64,000 nucleotides of DNA from Selenomonadales bacterium (GTDB taxonomy: Bacteria; Bacillota; UBA994), in assembly GCA_018335585.1 (NCBI GenBank), contig JAGXRZ010000040.1, forward strand, positions 23,906-87,905, read 5' to 3'. Below the pieces are notes generated by a model that did no database searches, was not told the DNA's origin, and worked only from the letters and a program-made list of their open reading frames with translations. Each line of letters starts with the position of its first letter. Position 1 is the first letter of the stretch. Shown piece after piece: positions 2,873-63,737 of the stretch. The translations under genes were made by a program, and so were the position numbers.

Positions 2873-2879
2873 TAGGGGT

Positions 2880-2992
2880 GCAGTTTGCACTTCGCACTTT
2901 GCACTTTGCACTTCGTAGTGTAATGCTCCAACTGCGAGCAGAGAACGCTACTTTCTCCACTAAGTGCTAAGTGCCAAGTGCCTAGTGCTACC
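2880..2992. repeat. Heptamer tandem-repeat locus A: [GCACTTN]x5, 43-bp spacer, inverted [NAAGTGC]x4
   Basis: gcagttt gcacttc gcacttt gcacttt gcacttc, then ctaagtg ctaagtg ccaagtg cctagtg in opposite orientation; lies between coaX stop and coaBC RBS. Confidence 0.8.
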
Positions 2993-3012
2993 ACGAGACA
3001 AGGAGGCCTCCC

Positions 3013-9514: not shown

Positions 9515-10839
9515 ATCCTGCAGTGCTTACGGCGGTGATGTTCGTCCTCCTCTTGGCTGGCATCGGCTCCGGCATGCCGGTAGCTTCAGTCTTAGCGGGT
9601 TTGGGTTTGTTCACTGGATTGGCCACCTGGGGTATGCGCTCCATGCCGATTATGGTTTCGGCCATCTTTGGCACGATGACCAGCGACGTGCTTATTGCCT
9701 TGCCGCTCTTTGTGTTTATGGGCTGTATGATGGAGGCCTCCGGTGTAGCGGACCGGCTCTTTATGAATCTGCGCGTGTTGTTAGGCTCTATGCGCGGCGG
9801 CTTAGGTATTGTGGCTATCTTGTTGGCTACAGTCTTGGCCGCAACCACTGGCATTATCGGGGCCTCGATAGTGATGATGGCGGCACTCGCACTGCCAAGC
9901 ATGCTAAAGGCCGAGTACGATAAGCCTTTGGCCGCGGGCATCATTTGCGCAGGCGGCAGTCTAGGCATCCTTATCCCGCCAAGTAACATGCTGATCATCT
10001 ATGCTCTGTCGGCAGGCGTTTCGGTCGTGTCGCTGTTTGCTGCGGCTGTTATTCCCGGCTTGTTGCTCGCTGCCTTGTATGTAGCTTATGTGGCTATTCG
10101 CTGTCACCTGCGGCCGGAGCTAGGTCCGCCGCTGCCGCCAGAAGAAAGAGGGAAAATCCGATTGATGCCTTTTCTGGGCGATTTGCTCACCTCCCTAGTG
10201 CCGCCCGTGCTGCTTATTGTCGCAGTGCTTGGCACTATCTTTCTAGGGATTGCCGCGCCGGTCGAAGCATCGGCGGCAGGCGCGTTTGGCGCGACGCTGC
10301 TAGCGGCCATGAACAAGCGGGTCAGCTTGGACGTGTTGAAAAAGGCTGCCCAGCATACCCTGCAGATCTCAAGCACCATTTTGTGGTTAGTGGTAGGCGC
10401 GAGTATGTTTACCTCGATCTTCCTCGTGCTCGGGGGAGGGCGGGTAGTGCACGATGCGATGATGAGTGTAGCTGGGGGCAATGCCTGGGTCGTTCTCGCC
10501 ATAATGATGGTCCTCCTCTTTGTCCTAGGTAAACTCATCTGTTGGGTAGGTATTCTGCTCATTACCGTCCCCATCTTCACCCCGATAGCGACCAGCCTCG
10601 GATTTAACCCGATTTGGTTTGCCTTGCTCGTGTGCGTTAACCTGCAGATGTCGCTCTTGACACCGCCTTTTGCTTACTCCATCTTCTACCTCAAGCAGGC
10701 GGCACCACCCGAAGTCACGCTGTTTCATATGTACAAGGGCGTGTGGCCGTTTATTGCGCTGCAGGCGGTGGGCTTACTACTCATCATCATTTTCCCAGAC
10801 TTGGTGCTCTGGCTTCCTAGCTTGCTCTATCAACGCTGA
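9511..10839 (+). CDS. dctM: TRAP transporter large permease (DctM family)
   Basis: 442 aa polytopic membrane protein with DctM-like pattern; start overlaps dctQ stop (translational coupling). Confidence 0.85.
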   Translation: MNPAVLTAVMFVLLLAGIGSGMPVASVLAGLGLFTGLATWGMRSMPIMVSAIFGTMTSDVLIALPLFVFMGCMMEASGVADRLFMNLRVLLGSMRGGLGIVAILLATVLAATTGIIGASIVMMAALALPSMLKAEYDKPLAAGIICAGGSLGILIPPSNMLIIYALSAGVSVVSLFAAAVIPGLLLAALYVAYVAIRCHLRPELGPPLPPEERGKIRLMPFLGDLLTSLVPPVLLIVAVLGTIFLGIAAPVEASAAGAFGATLLAAMNKRVSLDVLKKAAQHTLQISSTILWLVVGASMFTSIFLVLGGGRVVHDAMMSVAGGNAWVVLAIMMVLLFVLGKLICWVGILLITVPIFTPIATSLGFNPIWFALLVCVNLQMSLLTPPFAYSIFYLKQAAPPEVTLFHMYKGVWPFIALQAVGLLLIIIFPDLVLWLPSLLYQR

Positions 10840-12066: not shown

Positions 12067-12119
12067 GGGCTCTCCGTTTTCCGCCTTCCTCTTTCCTCCT
12101 CCGCTCGGGGCCGTAAGCT

Positions 12120-12182
12120 GTGAGTTGTGAGTTGTGAGTTATGAGTTGCGAGTTGTGAGTTGTGAGTTGTGAGTTGTGAGCC
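12120..12182. repeat. Heptamer tandem-repeat locus B: [GTGAGTT]x9
   Basis: gtgagtt x3, atgagtt, gcgagtt, gtgagtt x3, gtgagcc; preceded by a CT-rich tract; immediately upstream of the fur-family promoter. Confidence 0.9.
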
Positions 12183-15146: not shown

Positions 15147-15147
15147 C

Positions 15148-15528
15148 GCCAGCCGCCAGCCGCCAGCCGCCAGCCGCCAGCCGCCAGCCGCCAGCCGCCA
15201 GCCGCCAGCCGCCAGCCGCTGGCCGGCAGCGGAGCAGTGACGGGGTGGAAAGGTGGAAAGGTGGAAAAGTTAAAGGGGTAAGGGCTGTGAGCTGTGAGCT
15301 GTGAGGATAGGCTTTAGGCGTTAGGCGCTAGGGGAACGGGCTGTGAGCTTAAGCATTGAGCTGTGCACGAAGAGGAAGCGGATACCGCGGCGACGCGCTC
15401 TACTGGGCACTGAGCACTGGGCACTTCCCTACCAGGAGTCAGGAGCCAGCAGCTAGGAGCCCCTCGTCCTTCACGGAGCACGAAGCACGCTCCCTACTAG
15501 GATCCAGTAGCCAGTAGCCAGCCGCCCT
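15148..15528. repeat. Heptamer tandem-repeat locus C (~380 bp mosaic array)
   Basis: Blocks [GCCAGCC]x10, [GGTGGAAA]x3, [GTGAGCT]x3, [TAGGCNN]x3, [CTGGGCA/CTGAGCA]x3, [CAGGAGN]x4, [AGCACGN]x3, [CCAGTAG]x2; fills the whole interval between the leader terminator and the purB RBS. Confidence 0.9.
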
Positions 15529-22184: not shown

Positions 22185-23223
22185 GGAAGTAGGGGGCAGG
22201 GGAGCGGGTCTCACGTACCGCGACGCAGGCGTAGATGTCGCAGCCGGTCATCAAGCGGTTGACCTTATGCGGGCGCACGTGCGCTCTACCTTTCGCCGCG
22301 AGGTGCTGGGGGATATCGGCGGTTTCGGCGGGCTGTTTGCCTTAGGCAAGTACGAGGAGCCGGTCTTAGTGTCCGGCACGGACGGCGTCGGCAGCAAGCT
22401 TAAGGTAGCCTTTATGCTTGGGCGTCACAACACAGTCGGCATCGACCTCGTAGCCATGTCGGCCAACGACATCTTGGTCTCAGGTGCAGAGCCGCTGTTT
22501 TTCCTCGACTACATCGGCATTGCCCGCTTAGACCCCATTTTGGTGGCCGAGATTGTGGCCGGCGTTGCCGCAGGCTGCCAAGCCGCGGGGTGCGCGCTTA
22601 TAGGCGGCGAAACAGCCGAACTGCCAGACCTCTACAGCGCGGGCGAGTACGACCTAGCCGGGTTTGCCGTAGGTGTAGCGGAGAAAAAGCGTCTTATCGA
22701 CGGTAAAACAATTAGCTGTGGCGATATGCTGCTTGGGCTTGCGTCTAGCGGACTGCATAGCAACGGCTATTCGCTGGCGCGCAAACTAGTATTCGAAGTC
22801 GGCGGGTTTACCTGTGCCGATGTGCCGCCGGCACTAGGCGTAGCAGTCGGGGAAGAACTGCTCCGTCCGACGCGCATCTATGTGCGACCCGTACTGCCGC
22901 TAGTACGGCTAGGCTTAGTTAAAGGCATGGCCCACATTACAGGCGGCGGGTTTATCGACAATATTCCGCGCATGCTCCCCGCCGGTCTTGGCGTGGAAGT
23001 AACGCGCGGGAGCTGGCCTGTTTTGCCCGTTTTTGGCTGGCTCCAAGAACTTGGTCAGGTAGCCGAGAGCGAAATGTACCGCACGTTTAATATGGGAATT
23101 GGCTTTGTGCTCTTTGTGGCCGCAACAGACGTAGCCGCAGTACGCGAGCGGCTTGCAGGCTTTGGCGAAGAAAGCTATGTCATAGGGAAAGTAATCGCGG
23201 GTGAGGGGGTTTCGCTTGTCTGA
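22168..23223 (+). CDS. purM: AIR synthetase PurM
   Basis: 351 aa; YRDAGVDV N-terminal motif and PurM fold. Confidence 0.9.
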
Positions 23224-23224
23224 T

Positions 23225-23920
23225 GTGACACAACACTTCCCCAAGCGACAAGCGACAAGCGACAAGCGACATACGCCAAGCGACAAGCGACATCCCCCCC
23301 CCTTACGCCTTGCCGTCCTAGTCTCAGGCGGCGGAACTACTTTGCAGGGGCTAATAGACGCCATAGCGGCAGGCTCGCTCGGCGCGGAAATCGCCTTGGT
23401 CGTCAGTTCGCGGCGCGATGCTTTCGCCCTTGAGCGCGCGCGCCGCTCCGACATTCCTACCTGCGTACTTAGCAGGCGCGCTTTCACAACGCCCGAGCAA
23501 CACGATGCGGCCCTCGCCGGGCTACTGCAGCAACACCAAGTTGACCTCGTCGTCTTAGCGGGCTACTTGCTGCCCATAGGCCAAGCGACGCTAAGTGCGT
23601 TCCCGGGGCGGATTATAAACATTCATCCCAGTCTCCTGCCCGCCTTTGGCGGACGGGGATATTACGGGTCACGCGTACATACCGAAGTTCTGGAGCACGG
23701 CTGTAAGATTACCGGGGCTACCGTGCACTTTGTGGAGGCCGAGCTCGACACAGGACCCATAATTTTGCAGGGAGCCGTAGAAATAGAGGACGACGACACG
23801 AGCGAGTCGCTCGCAGCTAAGGTAGGAGAACTCGAGCGCGAGCTGTACCCAAGAGCCATTCAACTTTTTGCCGACGGCAAGCTCCGGCAAGTCGGGCGCA
23901 GGGTAACGATTCTAAAGTGA
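23225..23920 (+). CDS. purN: GAR formyltransferase PurN, with repeat-encoded N-terminal extension
   Basis: Conserved PurN core starts at LRLAVLVSGGG (~23303) and contains the HPSLLP motif. The only in-frame starts (GTG 23201, TTG 23216, GTG 23225) lie upstream of the heptamer array. ~26 extra residues (TQHFPKRQATSDKRHTPSDKRHPPP) are therefore translated from the CAAGCGA repeats and a C9 tract. Confidence 0.8.
   Translation: MTQHFPKRQATSDKRHTPSDKRHPPPLRLAVLVSGGGTTLQGLIDAIAAGSLGAEIALVVSSRRDAFALERARRSDIPTCVLSRRAFTTPEQHDAALAGLLQQHQVDLVVLAGYLLPIGQATLSAFPGRIINIHPSLLPAFGGRGYYGSRVHTEVLEHGCKITGATVHFVEAELDTGPIILQGAVEIEDDDTSESLAAKVGELERELYPRAIQLFADGKLRQVGRRVTILK
23242..23302. repeat. Heptamer tandem-repeat locus D: [CAAGCGA]x4, catacgc, [CAAGCGA]x2, then cat+C9, inside the purN 5' coding region
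   Basis: Copy number taken from the ORF-track translation (KRQATSDKRHTPSDKRHPPP), which requires four plus two units followed by nine C. Confidence 0.8.
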
Positions 23921-38187: not shown

Positions 38188-42562
<4,375 letters not shown>

Positions 42563-55951: not shown

Positions 55952-56137
55952 TTGTGAGGACCTCCCTACAAAATCTCTTTGCTATTTGTCACGATACTAT
56001 TGTGCACCGAGTTCGTCCGATTTTCAAGGACTTTGCGAAATAAATATCAATAGATGTGAAATAAATAGCAGACAATACATCAACCCCGGGTTCGTGTCGC
56101 CGACAGTGCCAAAGTAGAGATTGCCCGAAGTCCGCGT

Positions 56138-56143
56138 TATAAT
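56138..56143 (+). promoter_or_regulatory. -10 element TATAAT upstream of the COG2509 gene (-35 unclear)
   Basis: gcgttataatg 28 nt before RBS GGAGGAG; no good -35 at 17-bp spacing. Confidence 0.3.
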
Positions 56144-56170
56144 GAGGCAAGCAATCTGGAGGAGAAGACG

Positions 56171-57760
56171 ATGATTCGAGTCACAAACATAAAGGTCGCT
56201 TTAGACGAGCGCGGCGAAGTGTTGCCAGCCCTCCTTAAAAAGCTTGGCGTTGCGGGAAGCTCCCTCTCGCATTACTACATCTACAAAGAGGCTATCGACG
56301 CTCGCCGCAAAGATAGGATTCAGTTTGTCTACACCGTAGACGTTGCCCTGCCGAGCGAGCAGAAGTTCCTGCAGAAGACGCGTCATCCCGACATTTCGCT
56401 TGCGCCCACGGGGACCTATCAACTGCCGCAGCCGGGGGAGCAAAGGCTTAAGCACCGCCCGGTAATTGTCGGCACGGGGCCTGCCGGGCTCTTTGCCGGG
56501 CTCATTCTGTCGGAACTTGGTTTTCGCCCGCTACTACTCGAGCGCGGCGACGACGTCGATGCTCGCGCCGCAAAGGTGCGCGATTTCTGGCTGGGGGGAG
56601 AGCTAGACCCAAGCTCCAACGTGCAGTTTGGCGAGGGTGGGGCGGGCACTTTCTCGGACGGCAAACTAACGACCAATATTAAGGACCCGCGCTGCCGTAA
56701 AGTGTTGGCAGACTTAGTCGCGGCCGGTGCGCCGGCAAATATCCTCTACAGCTACAAGCCCCATGTCGGCACAGATATCCTGCGGCGCGTGGTGAAGGGG
56801 CTGCGGCAGACCATCGTGCAGCGCGGCGGGGAGGTGCGCTTTCGCGCTACCGTGACAGATTTCCGCTCAGATAGGGGGGCGGTGTCCGGCGTAATCGTGA
56901 ACGGACAAGAAGTAGTACCGGCTGACCTAGTCATTGTCGCGCCGGGGCACAGCGCACGGGACACCTTTTCAGCCCTGCTCGCCCGTGGTGTAGACATGAT
57001 CCCTAAGCCTTTTGCTATCGGCGCGCGCATAGAGCATCCCCAAGCTCTGATTGACGAAGCGCAGTATGGCCAAGCCGCAGGTCACCCAAATCTAGGCGCG
57101 GCTGACTACAAACTAAGCCATCACCCGGAAAGCGGACGCTCGGTGTACACTTTTTGCATGTGTCCGGGCGGACAAGTTGTTGCCGCGGCCTCGGAACAAG
57201 GCGGCGTAGTCACCAACGGCATGAGCGAGCACGCGCGTGCTAGCGGGCAAGCCAACAGCGCTATCCTAGTTGAAGTATCTCCGGCAGACTACGGCGGTAC
57301 ACACCCTCTAGCCGGGGCCCTCTTTCAGCGTCAGTGGGAGGAGAAGGCGTGGCAATTAGGCGGGAGAACACACCGCGCTCCGGCTCAACTGGTGGGCGAC
57401 TTTCTCAAGAACCGCAAATCATCTTCTGTAGGCAGCAGCCGGCCTTCCTATCTTCCCGGCGTCGAGCCAAGCGACCTCCGCCTATGCTTGCCAGACTGCA
57501 TCTCGGCGTCTCTGCAGGCCGGCCTACTGGCTTTTGACAAACAGCTCTCTGGCTTCGCGCACCCAGCGGCGCTCCTCACCGGGGTGGAAACGCGCAGCTC
57601 CTCCCCGGTAAGAATGGCCAGGAACAGCGACGGAGAAAGCACGGTCTTGGGGCTCTGCGTTGCGGGTGAGGGTGCGGGCTACGCCGGCGGCATTATGTCC
57701 GCGGCCGTGGATGGGTTGCGCGTGGCGGAAGGGGTCGCAGGCAAGTACCGCATTCATTAG
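56171..57760 (+). CDS. Uncharacterised FAD-dependent dehydrogenase (COG2509 family)
   Basis: VIVGTGPAGLFAG dinucleotide motif after a ~90-aa N-terminal domain; 529 aa. Confidence 0.7.
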   Translation: MIRVTNIKVALDERGEVLPALLKKLGVAGSSLSHYYIYKEAIDARRKDRIQFVYTVDVALPSEQKFLQKTRHPDISLAPTGTYQLPQPGEQRLKHRPVIVGTGPAGLFAGLILSELGFRPLLLERGDDVDARAAKVRDFWLGGELDPSSNVQFGEGGAGTFSDGKLTTNIKDPRCRKVLADLVAAGAPANILYSYKPHVGTDILRRVVKGLRQTIVQRGGEVRFRATVTDFRSDRGAVSGVIVNGQEVVPADLVIVAPGHSARDTFSALLARGVDMIPKPFAIGARIEHPQALIDEAQYGQAAGHPNLGAADYKLSHHPESGRSVYTFCMCPGGQVVAAASEQGGVVTNGMSEHARASGQANSAILVEVSPADYGGTHPLAGALFQRQWEEKAWQLGGRTHRAPAQLVGDFLKNRKSSSVGSSRPSYLPGVEPSDLRLCLPDCISASLQAGLLAFDKQLSGFAHPAALLTGVETRSSSPVRMARNSDGESTVLGLCVAGEGAGYAGGIMSAAVDGLRVAEGVAGKYRIH

Positions 57761-57855
57761 GGTAGTGCAGGCGCAAGCAGGAGGTAGTCAAGCTGTCTAG
57801 AAATAAGTACAATTAGAACAGGGAGTAGGGCGAAGGAGGATGGGGTGGTGGCTAC

Positions 57856-60539: not shown

Positions 60540-60728
60540 CAGTGTTGTCTCCTCTCCTTTATTTTGCTGTCACCTATGCTGAGCTTTAGCTCTGCAAAAC
60601 TGAACTTTAAGCTCTGCATGCTTGAATTGTAAGTGATGATTCTTGATGCGAAAACAAGTAAATATTAACAACACACAGAAGAGCCTTGCCGTTGCTGGTT
60701 GTGTTATTTTTTACTAGGAGTGAAAAAT

Positions 60729-61229
60729 ATGTACCGCAGAGAAAAACTTGACGACACACACCCCGATTTTTATCCCGTTTTGGCCAAAGAGCTTCACCAT
60801 TTAGTAGAGTTCGAAGCAGAGTGGTTAGCGTCGCTCAGTAACGCGGCTGCGCTACTTGGGCATCAGCTAGGGCGCATTAACTGGGCGGGGTTCTATCTGG
60901 TTAAAGAAGGCCTATTGGTGCTTGGCCCTTTTTGGGGCAAGCCGGCCTGTTCTGCGATTGTCTTGGGAGAGGGTGTCTGTGGCGCTGCTGCTCTAAGGCG
61001 CGAGACAATAGTCGTGCCCGATGTGCACGCCTTCCCCGGACACATTGCCTGCGACGAAGCCTCGCAGTCTGAAATCGTAGTGCCGATAATCTACCGCGGC
61101 GAACTTAAAGGCGTGCTCGATATCGACAGCCCAGAAAAAAACCGCTTCCTCCCCCGCGACCAAGCAGGGTTAGAAGCGTTTGTGGCTGTACTGGCGAGTG
61201 TGCTGCCGTGGGATAGGGTGGTGTTTTAG
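60729..61229 (+). CDS. GAF-domain free methionine-(R)-sulfoxide reductase (fRMsr)
   Basis: ~166 aa GAF fold with NWAGFYL and the conserved Cys triad region (CSAIVLGEGVCGAAA ... HIACD). Confidence 0.75.
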   Translation: MYRREKLDDTHPDFYPVLAKELHHLVEFEAEWLASLSNAAALLGHQLGRINWAGFYLVKEGLLVLGPFWGKPACSAIVLGEGVCGAAALRRETIVVPDVHAFPGHIACDEASQSEIVVPIIYRGELKGVLDIDSPEKNRFLPRDQAGLEAFVAVLASVLPWDRVVF

Positions 61230-61530
61230 GCGCCAGCCGCCGGGAGAGATTGCACTTCGCACTTGGCACTTAGCACTTAGTGGAGGACGAGGGGTTGCTG
61301 GCTGCTGGCTCCTGGCTCCTGGTAGAGAAGGTGCCCAGTGCCCAGTGCCCAGTAGAGCGCGTCGCAGCGGTTTCGGTTTCCCTTTGACCTTTCCACCCTC
61401 CATGCTCACAACTCACAACTCACAACTCACAATTCACAACTCACAAGCGACAAGGGACAAGCGACAAGGGACAAGCGACAAGGGACAAGCGACAAGGGAC
61501 AAGCGACATGCGACAAGCGACAAGCCACCA
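61230..61530. repeat. Heptamer tandem-repeat locus E (~300 bp mosaic array)
   Basis: gccagccgcc, [GCACTTN]x4, [GCTGGCT/GCTCCTG]x4, [GTGCCCA]x3, ggtttcggtttcc, cctttccacc, [CACAACT]x5, then alternating [CAAGCGA/CAAGGGA]x11; spans from the fRMsr stop to 80 bp before nrdD. Confidence 0.9.
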
Positions 61531-61545
61531 AACAATTGCCCCTAA

Positions 61546-61592
61546 GCACAATATGTAGTATACTTGCTTACAACGATATCCCACTAATAGTG
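61546..61592. promoter_or_regulatory. Putative tandem NrdR boxes upstream of nrdD
   Basis: cacaatatgtagtata and ccactaatagtgca, near-palindromic, centres ~33 bp apart, ~25-70 bp upstream of the nrdD start. Confidence 0.45.
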
Positions 61593-61616
61593 CATAAGGC
61601 TTAGGAGGAACAGCAC

Positions 61617-63737
61617 GTGTTTGCAGAAATTAGAAAACGAGACAAGACCGTTGTGCAGTTTAAGCCCGAGAAAATCACCTTAGCTATCCTAAGCGCACTT
61701 GTCGCTAACTACCCGGAGCGCACCCGCGCGGAGCTGCGTAAGCTAGCCGAGGTCATTTCCGAGCGCGTTATCTTTACGCTTAGCAAGCGGCGGCTAGCCG
61801 AAAGTTGCCCTTCCGTGGAAGAGGTGCAAGATACGGTAGAAGAAGTGCTGATGGAAGTAGGCGAACGCCAAACTGCTCGCCGCTACATACGTTACCGCCT
61901 GCAGCACGAGGAGATTCGTCAGAACAAGAAGTCGTTCGTAGACGCGCAGCGCATCGTCTTAGACTACGTCACGCGCGAGGACTGGCGCGTCAACGAAAAT
62001 TCCAACATGGATTTCTCGCTGCAGGGGCTAAACAACCACGTTATCGCCGAGGTGACGAAAGGCTTCTGGCTGTACCAGCTATATCCTCCTGAGGTGCGCG
62101 AGGCGCATGTAGGGGGAGATTTTCACCTGCACGACCTTGGTCTCTTGGCCCCTTATTGCTGTGGTTGGAGCCTAGAGGACCTTCTGTTGCTTGGGTTTAG
62201 AGGTGTGCCGGGCAAAGTAGAAAGTGCGCCGCCGCGTCATTTCCGCACCGCACTCCTGCAACTAGTCAACTTCTTCTATACGCTGCAGGGCGAGGCTGCC
62301 GGGGCACAGGCCGTAAGTTCGTTTGACACGTATTTAGCTCCTTTTGTGCGCCACGACAACCTAACCTACAAGGAAGTGCGCCAAGCCATCCAGGAGTTTG
62401 TCTACAATCTAAACGTGCCGACGCGCGTAGGGTTCCAGACGCCGTTTGTTAACCTTACCATGGATCTCAATTGTCCCGCGACCTTAGCTTCTGTTCCGGT
62501 AATTATTGGTGGAGAACACGGTGAGTCTACCTATGGCGAGTACCAAGCCGAGATGAACATGATTAACCGCGCTTTCTGTGATGTCATGATGAAAGGCGAC
62601 GCCCGAGGCAGAATTTTTACCTTCCCAATACCGACCTACAACATCACCAAGGATTTTGACTGGGACAACCCCGTCGTTGACGCCGTAATGGAGATGACGG
62701 CACGCTACGGCATCCCTTATTTCGCCAACTTCGTCAACAGTGACATGTCGCCGGAAGATGCGCGCAGCATGTGCTGCCGCTTGCGCCTTGACAACCGCGA
62801 GCTGCGCAAGCGCGGCGGGGGCTTGTTTGGCGCTAATCCTCTCACCGGCTCTATCGGCGTAGTTACTATTAACATGGCGCGTATCGGCTATTTAGCCACT
62901 AACGAAGATGAGTTCTATACTCGTTTACGTCGCCTAATGGACCTAGCTAAGTCCTCGCTAGACATTAAGCGCAAAGTGCTTGAAAAGAACACAGACCTAG
63001 GGCTTTATCCCTATAGCCGATTTTATCTAAAGTCGGTCAAGGAGAGATTCGGCGAGTACTGGAAAAATCACTTCAACACTATTGGCATTAACGGCATGAA
63101 TGAAGCTGTAGCTAATCTGTTAGGCCTCGCAGAGAACATCGCTACCGCGCGCGGACAAGCCTTCTCTCTGCGCGTGCTCGAGTACATGCGAGATGTCTTA
63201 GCCGAATACCAAGAAGAAACAGGCGACCTCTTTAACTTAGAAGCCACTCCAGCGGAGGGGACAGGCTATCGCTTGGCCAAGCTTGACCGCGAAAATTACC
63301 CCGCCATGTATATTCCTGGCAACAGGGAGCCATACTACACCAATTCGACACACCTGCCGGTAAATTTAACCACTGATATCTTTGATGCGCTAGACCTGCA
63401 GGAGCAGCTACAGATTCGTTATACCGGGGGAACCGTGTTTCATGGCTTTTTGGGAGAAGCAATCGAGGACTTAGCCACGTGCAAACGCCTCGTGCAGAAA
63501 GTTATGGAGAACTACAGCATACCGTATTTCACGGTCTCGCCCACATTTTCGGTATGCCCAGACCACGGCTACATTCGAGGGGAACATCGCACCTGCCCAA
63601 GTTGCGGCGCACCTGCGGAAATCTGGACGCGCGTGGTTGGCTTCCATCGACCCGTGCAGAATTGGAACCCCGGTAAGAAAGAGGAGTTTGCCGACAGGTT
63701 AGAGTACATTGTCCGGCAGGAGGCCGCTAATGACTAG
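61617..63737 (+). CDS. nrdD: Anaerobic ribonucleoside-triphosphate reductase NrdD (class III)
   Basis: N-terminal ATP-cone, large glycyl-radical fold, C-terminal Zn ribbon (CPDHG...CPSCG) and glycyl-radical region; TAGGAGGA RBS before GTG. Confidence 0.9.
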   Translation: MFAEIRKRDKTVVQFKPEKITLAILSALVANYPERTRAELRKLAEVISERVIFTLSKRRLAESCPSVEEVQDTVEEVLMEVGERQTARRYIRYRLQHEEIRQNKKSFVDAQRIVLDYVTREDWRVNENSNMDFSLQGLNNHVIAEVTKGFWLYQLYPPEVREAHVGGDFHLHDLGLLAPYCCGWSLEDLLLLGFRGVPGKVESAPPRHFRTALLQLVNFFYTLQGEAAGAQAVSSFDTYLAPFVRHDNLTYKEVRQAIQEFVYNLNVPTRVGFQTPFVNLTMDLNCPATLASVPVIIGGEHGESTYGEYQAEMNMINRAFCDVMMKGDARGRIFTFPIPTYNITKDFDWDNPVVDAVMEMTARYGIPYFANFVNSDMSPEDARSMCCRLRLDNRELRKRGGGLFGANPLTGSIGVVTINMARIGYLATNEDEFYTRLRRLMDLAKSSLDIKRKVLEKNTDLGLYPYSRFYLKSVKERFGEYWKNHFNTIGINGMNEAVANLLGLAENIATARGQAFSLRVLEYMRDVLAEYQEETGDLFNLEATPAEGTGYRLAKLDRENYPAMYIPGNREPYYTNSTHLPVNLTTDIFDALDLQEQLQIRYTGGTVFHGFLGEAIEDLATCKRLVQKVMENYSIPYFTVSPTFSVCPDHGYIRGEHRTCPSCGAPAEIWTRVVGFHRPVQNWNPGKKEEFADRLEYIVRQEAAND

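Follow-up and report, generated by a model that had tools for sequence, protein, structure and literature searches.

Heptanucleotides are the most abundant class of long simple sequence repeats (SSRs) in many bacteria, and a link with polymerase slippage has been proposed (PMC4679880; PMC4692102). Microcystis has mixed heptamers, indels in 7-nt steps distinguish close Cyanothece strains (PMC4679880; PMC4692102), and three tandemly repeated heptanucleotides have been reported in Calothrix PCC 7601 (PMC4692102). The GGGAATC repeats of Xanthomonas and the GGGGAYT repeats of Nostoc consist of one G-run unit with G-quadruplex potential; they are intergenic, lie near ORF ends, vary extensively in length and sequence between close species at the same gaps, are reported to be mostly retained at orthologous gaps and occasionally form inverted pairs able to fold into hairpins (Rehm et al. 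2015, PMC4692102). The TAACTGA repeats of marine Beggiatoaceae, a single, mostly forward unit in sets of 2-6 copies, are lineage-restricted and patchy and in many cases stop a few nucleotides short of a start codon or ribosome-binding site (RBS) (MacGregor 2015, PMC4679880). Geobacter metallireducens carries 49 dispersed, BLAST-recognisable copies of an element in which one block of four tandem GGGACCG heptamers lies in a conserved context; it is also found inside genes and has been proposed to be a regulatory RNA (PMC2700814). Full-text searches found no paper that connects heptamer repeats with Firmicutes, Peptococcaceae or related taxa. Composite repeats are represented by BIME/REP of E. 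coli and by the pneumococcal BOX element (boxA-(boxB)n-boxC), whose modules have a preferred order, one of them being present in variable tandem number. As with the element described below, they lie between genes and within operons, in either orientation, and their paralogues are kept similar; their modules, however, are palindromic units of 35-60 nt and not 7-nt microsatellites, and the mobility of REP is tied to RAYT transposases.

The stretch of DNA analysed here (the window, 64,000 nt) comes from an uncultured Peptococcaceae-like member of the Bacillota, and the locus under study, copy E, lies between a GAF-domain (fRMsr-like) gene and nrdD. With long SSRs (Mrazek et al. 2007) and the STRR and mixed arrays of the cyanobacteria Calothrix, Nostoc and Microcystis it shares tandem 7-nt units in a few to a dozen copies, an over-represented period, many intergenic loci per genome, different heptamers side by side and strain indels in 7-nt steps; function is unsettled there too, and slippage is the proposed driver (PMC4679880; PMC4692102). 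It differs in its host, which is neither a cyanobacterium nor a proteobacterium, in its unrelated unit sequences, and in that its blocks are set on a backbone of unique spacers, which is conserved and colinear and is copied in one piece from locus to locus; no description of such a multi-block spacer backbone for STRR-type repeats was found in the literature searched. The Xanthomonas and Nostoc repeats resemble it in position, in variability at the same gaps and in the occasional inverted pair (compare copy A below), but copy E has at least seven unit types without G-runs and its site is empty in near relatives (PMC4692102). Like TAACTGA, the element is patchy and lineage-restricted, and copies C, D and G end just before a start codon or RBS; unlike it, the element has many units, up to 12 copies of a unit and mixed orientation (PMC4679880). 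The Geobacter element is similarly dispersed and embedded in conserved context, but has no multi-block backbone (PMC2700814). We place the array among the intergenic heptanucleotide repeats of bacteria, which are known but little understood; such repeats are new for this phylum, and a multi-block backbone seems not to have been described before. A strict cyanobacterial STRR was rejected: the units differ from what we take to be the Calothrix STRR sequences, and a Bacillus-type pur operon, nrdD/nrdG and a match to a Peptococcaceae metagenome-assembled genome (MAG) indicate Bacillota. The reading we favour, with a probability of roughly 0.75, is that the locus is about 300 bp of lineage-specific repetitive DNA, one copy of a dispersed composite element, and not a dedicated nrdD control region.

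At least 13 of 14 period-7 matches are found at 148 positions of the window, compared with 0-1 in 20 shuffles and at most 5 for periods 5, 6 and 8-12, and all 148 fall within six intergenic gaps. This periodicity is not due to chance, and seven is the sole short period enriched in the window. As expected of heptanucleotide SSRs, TRF finds head-to-tail 7-nt units in three or more copies at 61252-61525 and at five other loci, all arrays are in gene gaps (8 loci in 80.7 kb), and copy number and unit vary at one site between related strains. A CRISPR array was rejected, as units of 7 nt run head to tail with no spacers within a block, whereas CRISPR repeats of 24-48 nt alternate with unique spacers of similar length.

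Positions 61230-61535 form a chain of period-7 tandem blocks, described here on the plus strand. Copy E begins 2 nt past the TAG stop (61227-61229) of the GAF-domain gene, whose name fRMsr was not confirmed by NCBIfam and is supported by precomputed Pfam GAF/GAF_2 matches only. Its left end, GCCAGCCGCC (61232-61241), represents 1.5 units of a CGCCAGC block and together with the backbone spacer GGGAGAGATT fills 61232-61251; the left end "GCCGCCGGGAGAGA" is common to copies E and G and to the orthologue in relative L017. Four GCACTTN units follow (61252-61279; 4.1 copies, to 61280, by TRF), ending in TTC, TTG, TTA and TTA, and then the conserved non-repeat spacer GTGGAGGACGAGGGG (core 1, 61280-61294). 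This spacer is also found in D, in the reverse complement of C (rc(C)), twice in G, in H and in the Peptococcaceae MAG L013. The units TTGCTGG, CTGCTGG, CTCCTGG and CTCCTGG with the spacer TAGAGAAG occupy 61295-61330 (TRF), a segment 88% identical to 40437-40485 of copy D; TRF reads 61295-61322 as 3.6-4 copies of CTGGCTC/CTCCTGG. Next come three GTGCCCA units (61331-61351; 3.3 copies, to 61353, by TRF), at the homologous position of which rc(C) carries GTGCCCA, GTGCTCA and GTGCCCA. The non-repeat region 61352-61404, composed of the backbone spacer GTAGAGCGCGTCGCAGCGGTTTCGGTTTCCCTTTGACC, TTTCCACC (61390-61397) and CTCCATG, is complementary to C 15374-15424 at 90% over 51 nt and is kept in the L017 orthologue and in locus L017b. 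The block of 6.0 CTCACAA units (61405-61446, TRF) contains no G, has a GC skew of -0.79, is unpaired in the predicted fold and is the reverse complement of locus B (93% over 42 nt). The right end, 61443-61535, is a CAAGCGA/CAAGGGA block with the tail GCCACCAAACAA, and stops 1-10 nt upstream of the nrdD -35 hexamer. Its repeat run (61443-61525) amounts to 11.9 units of 7 nt or 5.9 of 14 nt at 95% match (TRF), which bears out the near-perfect 14-nt periodicity of the original prediction; the CAAGCGA unit recurs at 23242-23292, in G and in L013. Every block of that prediction lies where it had been placed; the CACAACT (CTCACAA) block has 6.0 units and not five.

The analysis covered about 81 kb (80.7 kb) of this genome, in which at least eight copies of the element were counted, and about 100 kb of relatives. 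The copies stand in both orientations and reach from the stop codon or terminator on the upstream side to the RBS or promoter on the downstream side. Copy A (2873-2995, plus strand), between coaX and coaBC, joins four GCACTTY units to an inverted copy of four CTAAGTG units, giving a long hairpin. Copy B (12119-12180, minus strand) is one block of nine TGTGAGT units between the dctP terminator and the fur promoter. Copy C (15147-15527, minus strand, opposite in orientation to E) is flanked by a riboswitch terminator and the purB RBS and contains CGCCAGC x12, GGTGGAAA x3, GCTGTGA x3, TAGGCGT x3.6, ACTGGGC x3.4, CCAGGAG x4.3 and CCAGTAG x2.6. Copy F (23242-23292, plus strand) is one block of seven CAAGCGA units inside the pur operon, between purM and purN. 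Copy D (40387-40564, plus strand) extends from the pcrA stop codon to the ligA RBS and reads CGTGCKY x7, GTGGAGGACGGGGGG, CTCCTRG x4, TAGAGAG..CCCCTAG, TTCACGA x4, TTGCCCCCG and GCTCAHC x3. In copy G a module with the GCACTTN core is present twice. Long perfect arrays, such as the 12 nearly identical CGCCAGC units and four copies of (CAAGCGACAAGGGA), point to recent slippage.

The copies are homologous well beyond their heptamers. Loci C and E both start with GCCAGCC, as had been noticed. Copies E and rc(C) share 43 distinct 7-mers, against means of about 1-8 and maxima of 16-24 in three null models, while same-strand sharing (9) is at the null level. By the yardstick set beforehand, the sharing among random heptamers, the reverse-complement vocabulary common to the two loci is thus real, and the view that it did not arise by local tandem duplication is upheld. 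Two further claims, a different block order and an assembly from a pool of 7-mers, are not supported: E and rc(C) align colinearly over 149 nt at 79% identity (E=2e-30), and their match takes in non-repeat spacers such as GTGGAGGACGAGGGG and GTAGAGCGCGTCGC, the longest common substring (23 nt) spanning a block boundary. Colinearity extends to D, G and H and to two loci in a relative. Copies E and G are 86% identical over 93 nt, including a 43-nt exact match made of GCACTTC, GCACTTG, GCACTTA, GCACTTA and GTGGAGGACGAGGGG, in which the order of unit variants is preserved. Further pairs are G-H (92.5% over 67 nt), D-G (89% over 71 nt), C-G (95% over 42 nt) and E-F (84% over 58 nt), and the 27-mer GCACTTGGCACTTAGCACTTAGTGGAG occurs four times in 80.7 kb. 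The distance from GTGGAGGACGAGGGG to CTCCTGGTAG is exactly 21 nt in E, D and rc(C), and the core pattern AGGACGRGGGG-N21-CTCCTGGTAG has 3 matches, compared with 0 in 100 shuffles. The consensus order is [CGCCAGC], GGGAGAGA, [GCACTTN or CGTGCKY], GTGGAGGACGRGGGG, [CTSCTRG], TAGAGARG, [GTGCCCA-type], GTAGAGCGCGTCGC..., [CGCCTAA], CCCCTAG, [TTCAYGA], TTGCCCCCG, [GCTCACA] and [CAAGCGA]. Since spacers and the order of unit variants are shared, what is copied is either entire blocks together with their flanks or the element as a whole, and not heptamers.

Such a vocabulary of blocks could also be a binding-site grammar, in which a DNA- or RNA-binding protein would have a series of sites in each block, with loci assembled combinatorially. 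Blocks do recur in varied combinations (the module twice in G, the inverted pair in A, single blocks in B and F), the CTSCTRG block is exactly 28 nt long in three copies, and binding proteins have been proposed for other heptamer repeats (PMC4679880; bioRxiv 10.1101/2022.06.06.494920). We nevertheless hold this to be improbable. The largely conserved order, with shared spacers and unit-variant order, speaks for copying and not for independent assembly; units at homologous positions differ between copies and orthologues (GCACTTN/CGTGCKY; CTGGCTC/CAAGAGG); relative to the gene downstream, the copies point both ways (5 to 3); and blocks turn over fast among relatives.

A structured non-coding RNA, or a small protein encoded by an ORF that spans the array (61180-61545, 121 aa), is a very unlikely account of the region. 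In the predicted fold a local hairpin of E pairs the GCACUU block with the GUGCCCA block, and copy A folds better than its shuffled controls (z = -3.2). The hairpin arrangement is lost, however, in C and in loci L017b and L018a; all shuffled versions of E and C fold better than the originals (z = +3.0), D is no better than chance, and no Rfam match was obtained at the gathering threshold or at E<=1. The ORF, for its part, has no NCBIfam match, overlaps the end of the GAF gene, is not conserved and is broken by indels in relatives that are not multiples of three.

Relatives were ranked by nucleotide identity of nrdD, except near-identical strains and genomes L018 and L019, for which NrdD protein identity was used. 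In strains with 96-99% NrdD protein identity the array is present, and its visible right end, 29-34 nt before the contigs end, holds only CAAGCGA units. In L017 (89% nrdD identity) the gap measures 514 nt; one block is deleted, several block copy numbers have changed, and new CAAGARG units and a 150-nt foreign insertion are found. Between the window and L017, CCAGCCG counts are 1.5 and 3.3, GTGCCCA counts are 3.3 and 2.3, and TTTCCACC-type units are expanded. Remnants of about 50-60 nt are left in L147 (86%) and L140 (82%), and in L142 (78%) the gap is empty, so that 6 nt separate the stop codon and the -35 hexamer; no array was found in the fRMsr-nrdD gap of L018 and L019 (85% and 82% NrdD protein identity). 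At this gap the element is therefore present only in the closest relatives, which differ mainly by indels: the genes of the window and L017 are 88-89% identical without gaps, whereas in the array region 289 positions can be aligned, 75% of them identical, and another 160 positions are gaps. Neighbouring gaps behave likewise, relatives holding arrays where the window has none and vice versa. The proposed check of block order in related genomes thus divides: two loci of a relative are colinear, but the nrdD gap is empty, holds a remnant or holds a heavily rearranged array.

The pattern AGGACGRGGGG-N(14-35)-CTCCTGGTAG gave 12 matches among genome contigs, of which 11 were chance matches in unrelated phyla and the sole real one was MAG L013. 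The 15-mer spacer CAGTAGAGCGCGTCG proved too short for a scan of metagenome contigs: among the loci it returned, L078, L092 and L115 were inspected and rejected as chance matches, their contigs being GC-rich and unrelated, and when every returned locus was screened for period 7 no copy of the element was found. These three contigs happen to hold heptamer arrays of their own.

That the array is an artefact of short-read metagenome assembly is barely credible. Several Logan contigs do break inside the 14-nt array; the ENA contig, on the other hand, reads through it, and the Logan contigs that reach it (L002-L004) match the window exactly to their ends. Even the longest blocks, at about 84 nt, fit within a typical read, and related genomes that were assembled independently contain homologous arrays. 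The JGI assembly and two ENA assemblies of the strain are 100% identical over 21 kb including four arrays (A, B, G and H), so that the arrays are not hypermutable on short timescales, with the proviso that the assemblies may stem from related samples.

The nrdD promoter region (61536-61616, plus strand) lies outside the element, with a -35 hexamer TTGCCC (61536-61541), 17-nt spacing and a -10 hexamer TATACT (61559-61564), followed by an AGGAGG RBS (61603-61608) and a GTG start (61617). Two palindromes overlapping the promoter (about 61546-61561 and 61580-61595) resemble NrdR boxes, an assignment based on the NrdR consensus. This promoter and box-like region is conserved across six relatives, array or not. 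From these positions, the array is not part of the putative NrdR-controlled nrdD promoter, which stays intact just downstream. A role as part of the NrdR operator was rejected, because the box-like palindromes and promoter (61536-61595) lie downstream and are kept in relatives without the array; a phase-variable contingency locus was rejected as well, the array being upstream of the -35 hexamer with nrdD and the GAF ORF untouched.

It could still be argued that the array is a cis-regulatory or phase-variable nrdD module, whose length changes reposition or alter upstream promoter DNA and tune expression of the anaerobic ribonucleotide reductase. The array stops 1-10 nt from the -35 hexamer, no intrinsic terminator was found between fRMsr and nrdD, and in L140 a different heptamer block lies inside the nrdD 5' UTR; in Nostoc, deletion of heptamer repeats altered recO promoter output in reporter assays (bioRxiv 10.1101/2022.06.06.494920). 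We consider this module quite improbable nonetheless. The repeats are outside the -35/-10 spacer and outside any ORF, so that their copy number leaves promoter geometry unchanged, relatives without the array keep the promoter and boxes, the sequence is identical across three assemblies, and the same element adjoins unrelated housekeeping genes (coaX/coaBC, dctP/fur, purB, purM/purN, pcrA/ligA). The link to NrdR and nrdD control that had been implied finds no support, since the array is absent or vestigial in close relatives that keep promoter and boxes and the element stands beside unrelated genes. Any effect on nrdD would be secondary, possibly through the displaced sequence upstream of the -35 hexamer or through a C-rich unstructured RNA acting on read-through from fRMsr.

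The composite may be a non-autonomous element of MITE, REPIN or BIME type, moved by a trans-acting transposase (e.g. RAYT/IS200-type HUH), with the heptamer blocks as amplified pieces of its arms; this is possible but doubtful, and it refines the dispersed composite element rather than excluding it. Copies stand in both orientations and in many gaps, and their presence differs between close relatives. At the nrdD gap, the left end of E is GGCGCCAGCCGCCGGGAGAGA, and L140 and L017 have retained a right end, TCTCCTGGCGGCTGGCGCC, that is its inverted complement; no terminal inverted repeat is consistent across copies, however: the two ends of C are of the same type, and in G and H one end is missing. 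Comparison of the filled site (window and L017) with the empty one (L142) shows no target-site duplication, the array simply lying between stop codon and -35 hexamer. GT(A/G)G(A/G)G punctuation follows most blocks, yet GTAG is enriched in the arrays only about 1.6-fold. A REP-like hairpin doublet starting GTAGGGACGTGC is found inside copy G and inside the L017 orthologue, and also alone in L017, although the motif GTAGGGACGTGC is at chance frequency within the window. The units CGTGCGT, GCACTTC and GTGCCCA resemble arms of this hairpin, but a likeness of 5-6 of 7 positions carries little information. More tentative still is the proposal that the blocks are the body of a new class of composite, mobile or self-homogenising Bacillota element, with a REP-derived backbone and GT(A/G)G(A/G)G sites, at which a dedicated enzyme (e.g. 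an HUH/RAYT-type nuclease) or recombination would copy complete blocks from locus to locus and seed 7-nt slippage.

For the dispersed composite element, the following history would account for the data. The element is built of blocks of 3-12 tandem heptanucleotides and short conserved spacers in a largely fixed order. It may have entered the fRMsr-nrdD gap once the lineage that L142 represents had split off, copied from another copy by non-reciprocal recombination or a transposition-like event; given the inconsistent terminal repeats and the lack of target-site duplications, this copying mechanism is one that we infer. The blocks would later have grown, shrunk and switched unit in steps of 7 or 14 nt, through replication slippage or unequal exchange, and gene conversion among paralogous copies may keep blocks near-identical within the genome. 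A gap that changes fast, being empty, a remnant or rearranged, beside a conserved promoter suggests that the array is inserted DNA changing by 7- or 14-nt slippage and by exchange between copies. Judged from the sequence, the array is most likely near-neutral filler, tolerated where signals stay undisrupted. Pure junk would be expected to show less conservation than is seen in the backbone spacers and in the length of the CTSCTRG block, exactly 28 nt in three copies; this leaves room for a sequence-specific interaction.

The locus extends intergenic heptamer repeats to an uncultured Firmicute lineage, in which the blocks can travel as a set on a conserved backbone and can be exchanged between copies. 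For annotation, the array should not count as nrdD regulatory DNA. Such elements fragment short-read assemblies and create spurious ORFs and extended start codons. They can also sit in operons and 5' UTRs, and the copy between the riboswitch terminator and purB could affect expression. If the proposal of a composite mobile element were true, this lineage would offer a tractable route to understanding why heptamers dominate the long SSRs of bacteria.

Array E, a string of heptamer blocks at 61230-61535 between the fRMsr and nrdD genes, is best explained, with a probability of roughly three in four, as one copy of a dispersed, lineage-specific composite repeat that serves as near-neutral filler and not as control DNA of nrdD, the anaerobic ribonucleotide reductase gene. 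Among short periods, period 7 alone is enriched in the window: 148 positions carry at least 13 of 14 period-7 matches, as compared to at most 5 for periods 5, 6 and 8-12 and 0-1 in 20 shuffles. All of them fall inside six gene gaps, whose flanking ORFs were assigned by Pfam scans. Besides E, these hold arrays A (2873-2995, coaX-coaBC), B (12119-12180, dctP-fur), C (15147-15527, upstream of purB), F (23242-23292, purM-purN) and D (40387-40564, pcrA-ligA).

Array E follows a GAF-domain gene encoding 166 aa (TAG stop codon at 61227-61229), called fRMsr-like from Pfam GAF/GAF_2 matches only; an NCBIfam search of this gene gave no match. The array consists of GCCAGCCGCC - GGGAGAGATT, four GCACTTN units, GTGGAGGACGAGGGG, the units TTGCTGG CTGCTGG CTCCTGG CTCCTGG, TAGAGAAG, three GTGCCCA units, GTAGAGCGCGTCGCAGCGGTTTCGGTTTCCCTTTGACC - TTTCCACC - CTCCATG, six CTCACAA units, about 12 CAAGCGA/CAAGGGA units (14-nt period x5.9, 95% match) and GCCACCAAACAA. 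Directly 3' of it lies a sigma-70-like promoter, TTGCCC-17-TATACT (61536-61564), the sole such site in 61100-61700, followed by two NrdR-box-like palindromes, an RBS and nrdD itself, with a GTG start at 61617 and a product carrying ATP-cone and NRDD domains. In the gap upstream of the GAF gene, next to NLPC_P60, a 21-nt (3 x 7) tandem repeat, ATGCTGAACTTTAAGCTCTGC x2.2, is found at 60576-60622; the same gap in the relative L017 is occupied by heptamer arrays.

The original prediction held that E reuses the words of C in a different order and orientation, as modular assembly from a shared pool of 7-mers. Its account of the blocks was accurate apart from slightly wrong unit counts, and the array and its period 7 are confirmed, whereas its interpretation is only partly supported. 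The prediction withstands the condition it set for its own refutation: E and the reverse complement of C have 43 distinct 7-mers in common, well beyond the nulls (shuffles, random genomic windows and synthetic random-heptamer arrays, averaging about 1-8 and reaching 16-24 at most), while same-strand sharing, at 9, is at null level; the inverted relation therefore stands. A different order of words, however, is not supported, as the two loci are colinear. BLAST aligns E 61268-61417 with the reverse complement of C at 79% identity over 149 nt (E-value 2e-30), passing through non-repeat spacers. Their longest common substring, CAGTGCCCAGTAGAGCGCGTCGC, spans a block boundary, and AGGACGRGGGG-N21-CTCCTGGTAG occurs with an identical 21-nt gap in E, D and the reverse complement of C but never in shuffles.

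Extending the contig 7 kb upstream revealed two further copies, G and H. Copy G (460 nt, between an acetyltransferase gene and tsaD) holds nearly all modules known from the other copies in unchanged order: GCCGCCGGGAGAGA; five GCACTTN - GTGGAGGACGAGGGG - three CTGCTGG - TAGAACGG; four GCACTTN - GTGGAGGACGAGGGG ... three CAAGAGG; a REP-like hairpin doublet; CCCGTTCCCCTAGCGCCTAACGCC..., as in C; CCCCTAG, four TTCATGA and TTGCCCCCG - five GCTCACA, as in D; and finally CAAGCGA. Pairwise identities are 86% over 93 nt (E-G), 92.5% over 67 nt (G-H), 89% over 71 nt (D-G), 95% over 42 nt (C-G) and 97% over 38 nt (E-H). E and G share an exact 43-mer, order of unit variants included (TTC, TTG, TTA, TTA), and 80.7 kb contain the 27-mer GCACTTGGCACTTAGCACTTAGTGGAG four times; what is copied is therefore not the 7-mer but either a block together with its flanking sequence or the composite as a whole. 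The same backbone of blocks and spacers runs through all 15 copies parsed, from five genomes. Copies G, D, A and F have the orientation of E and C, H and B the opposite one, and all eight downstream genes lie on the + strand, so the element has no fixed relation to transcription.

NrdD homologues form a graded series, here compared by nrdD nucleotide or NrdD protein identity. The fRMsr-nrdD gap measures 388 nt in the window. In near-identical strains (L144-L146, 96-99% protein identity) the contigs break inside the array, and the 29-34 nt visible are CAAGCGA units alone, so no CAAGGGA alternation is seen there. In L017 (89% nucleotide identity) the gap is 514 nt, with the array ends and the GTAGAGCGCGTCG spacer as in the window; the GCACTTN block is gone, CAAGARG units replace CTGGCTC, unit counts are different, and the array has gained a foreign element of 150 nt. 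L147 (86%) keeps a remnant of about 60 nt in a 137-nt gap. L140 (82%) has a 207-nt gap with a 50-nt remnant upstream and a new block of about four TTCAYGA units, as in copy D, at 9895-9985, within the nrdD 5' UTR between the second NrdR-box-like site and the RBS. In L142 (78%) the 88-nt gap is empty, the stop codon standing 6 nt from the -35, and L018 and L019 (85% and 82% protein identity) also have no array there. The element was probably inserted at this gap once its lineage had diverged from that of L142, and it changes chiefly through indels: comparing window with L017, the genes on either side are 88-89% identical and align with zero gaps, as compared to 75% identity across 289 aligned positions, plus 160 gap positions, for the array region. 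Neighbouring gaps carry arrays absent from the window, two in L017 and one in L018; none occurs in 22 kb of L019. A DUF8436/FAD-dependent gene between acyl-CoA dehydrogenase and SBP_bac_3-HD is present in the window, L140 and L147 and absent from L017, where a full composite array occupies the junction (L017 5634-6050 vs window 55952-57855); arrays may thus be associated with deletion or rearrangement.

Several functional readings were considered. The nrdD promoter and box region are kept in every relative compared, array or none, and E replaces the DNA upstream of the -35. A structured RNA was rejected, as every shuffle of E and of C folds better than the array itself (z = +3.0) and D folds at chance; the sole stable fold predicted among A, C, D and E is an inverted pair in A, and an Rfam search gave no match for the array. 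Coding was rejected because the ORF at 61180-61545 has no family match and is not conserved, and a classical phase-variation switch because the array lies outside the -35/-10 spacer and outside all ORFs. A CRISPR array was also rejected. A secondary effect on nrdD may exist: no intrinsic terminator follows fRMsr, and the 3' half of E is G-poor (GC skew -0.79) and unpaired in the predicted fold, a composition that, speculatively, would suit Rho loading on transcripts reading through from fRMsr.

Array C has a regulatory neighbour. A ykkC/Guanidine-I-family aptamer (RF00442, 15014-15146; 62 bits, below the gathering score of 63; E-value 1.5e-10) and, after it, a strong intrinsic terminator precede purB and the pur operon; this setting points to a riboswitch of subtype 2 (PRPP or ppGpp). 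Array C, 380 nt long, separates the terminator from the purB RBS and so lies within the regulated 5' leader.

Arrays extend from an upstream stop codon or terminator to a downstream RBS or promoter, as expected if selection trims filler back to functional boundaries. Blocks would gain and lose units, 7 or 14 nt at a time, through slippage or unequal exchange, because 12 near-identical CGCCAGC units occur and (CAAGCGACAAGGGA) x4 here contrasts with the CAAGCGA-only visible ends in close strains. Gene conversion would swap whole blocks between paralogous copies, because paralogous segments are up to 92-100% identical vs about 75-80% for orthologous arrays. A REP/MITE-like origin of the composite is weakly hinted at by the two ancestral ends of the nrdD site, which are inverted complements, by GT(A/G)G(A/G)G after most blocks, and by a REP-like doublet (GTAGGGACGTGC...) within copy G and the L017 orthologue of E; the copies and sites compared showed neither consistent terminal inverted repeats nor a duplicated target. 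The doublet, GTAGGGACGTGC-loop-GCACGTCC GCGGACGTGCC-loop-GGCACGTCCCTAC, is located at L017 9711-9860 and 13690-13760 and at L149 4384-4436 (about 2.6 kb before the window begins). It is inserted in heptamer arrays at two loci in two genomes and elsewhere stands alone; in L017 it is bordered by inverted repeats CAGACNGTGCGAAAA and looks MITE-like.

An assembly artefact is ruled out. Three assemblies of the strain (one JGI, two ENA, from possibly related samples) are identical over 21 kb including arrays A, B, G and H. The arrays must therefore be genuine, and over short timescales they are not hypermutable. Elements like E systematically fragment assemblies of this lineage, and six independent Logan short-read contigs (L002-L004, L144-L146) all end within the CAAGCGA array, about 120-145 nt upstream of nrdD. 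They are also a source of annotation errors: mechanical ORF calling pushes the ligA and purN starts into arrays (40388-40579, 23201-23332), and spurious genes include a 121-aa ORF across E (61180-61545) and a 34-aa JGI call inside G.

Heptanucleotides are cited as the most abundant class of long SSRs in many bacterial genomes, with a proposed link to polymerase footprint and slippage (Mrazek et al. 2007, via PMC4679880, PMC4692102). Xanthomonas and Nostoc heptamers are described as strongly intergenic, with lengths varying between close species (PMC4692102), those of Microcystis as "often mixed with others", and close Cyanothece strains as differing by indels in 7-nt steps (PMC4679880; PMC4692102). 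Geobacter metallireducens has a 49-copy element carrying four GGGACCG units (PMC2700814), and heptamer deletion changed reporter output in Nostoc (bioRxiv 10.1101/2022.06.06.494920). E shows all defining features of intergenic heptanucleotide SSRs that could be examined. What appears new is the host, an uncultured Bacillota, the density of about one locus per 10 kb, and the multi-block colinear backbone copied between loci. Functionally, this backbone recalls BIME and BOX mosaics. A full-text literature search found no paper tying heptamer repeats to Firmicutes or Peptococcaceae-related taxa, and a Peptococcaceae MAG was the sole genome-database match. The element is thus a composite repeat, dispersed within the genome and restricted to one lineage. 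Chance 15-mer matches alone led to three unrelated GC-rich metagenome contigs, which carry mosaic intergenic arrays of their own (L078 2360-2434, L092 6438-7257, L115 3467-3700) with the units CACCAAT, GAGAGTT, CATCGAG, CCGAAAT and GTGAAAC, which suggests that arrays of several heptamer units are common among environmental bacteria.
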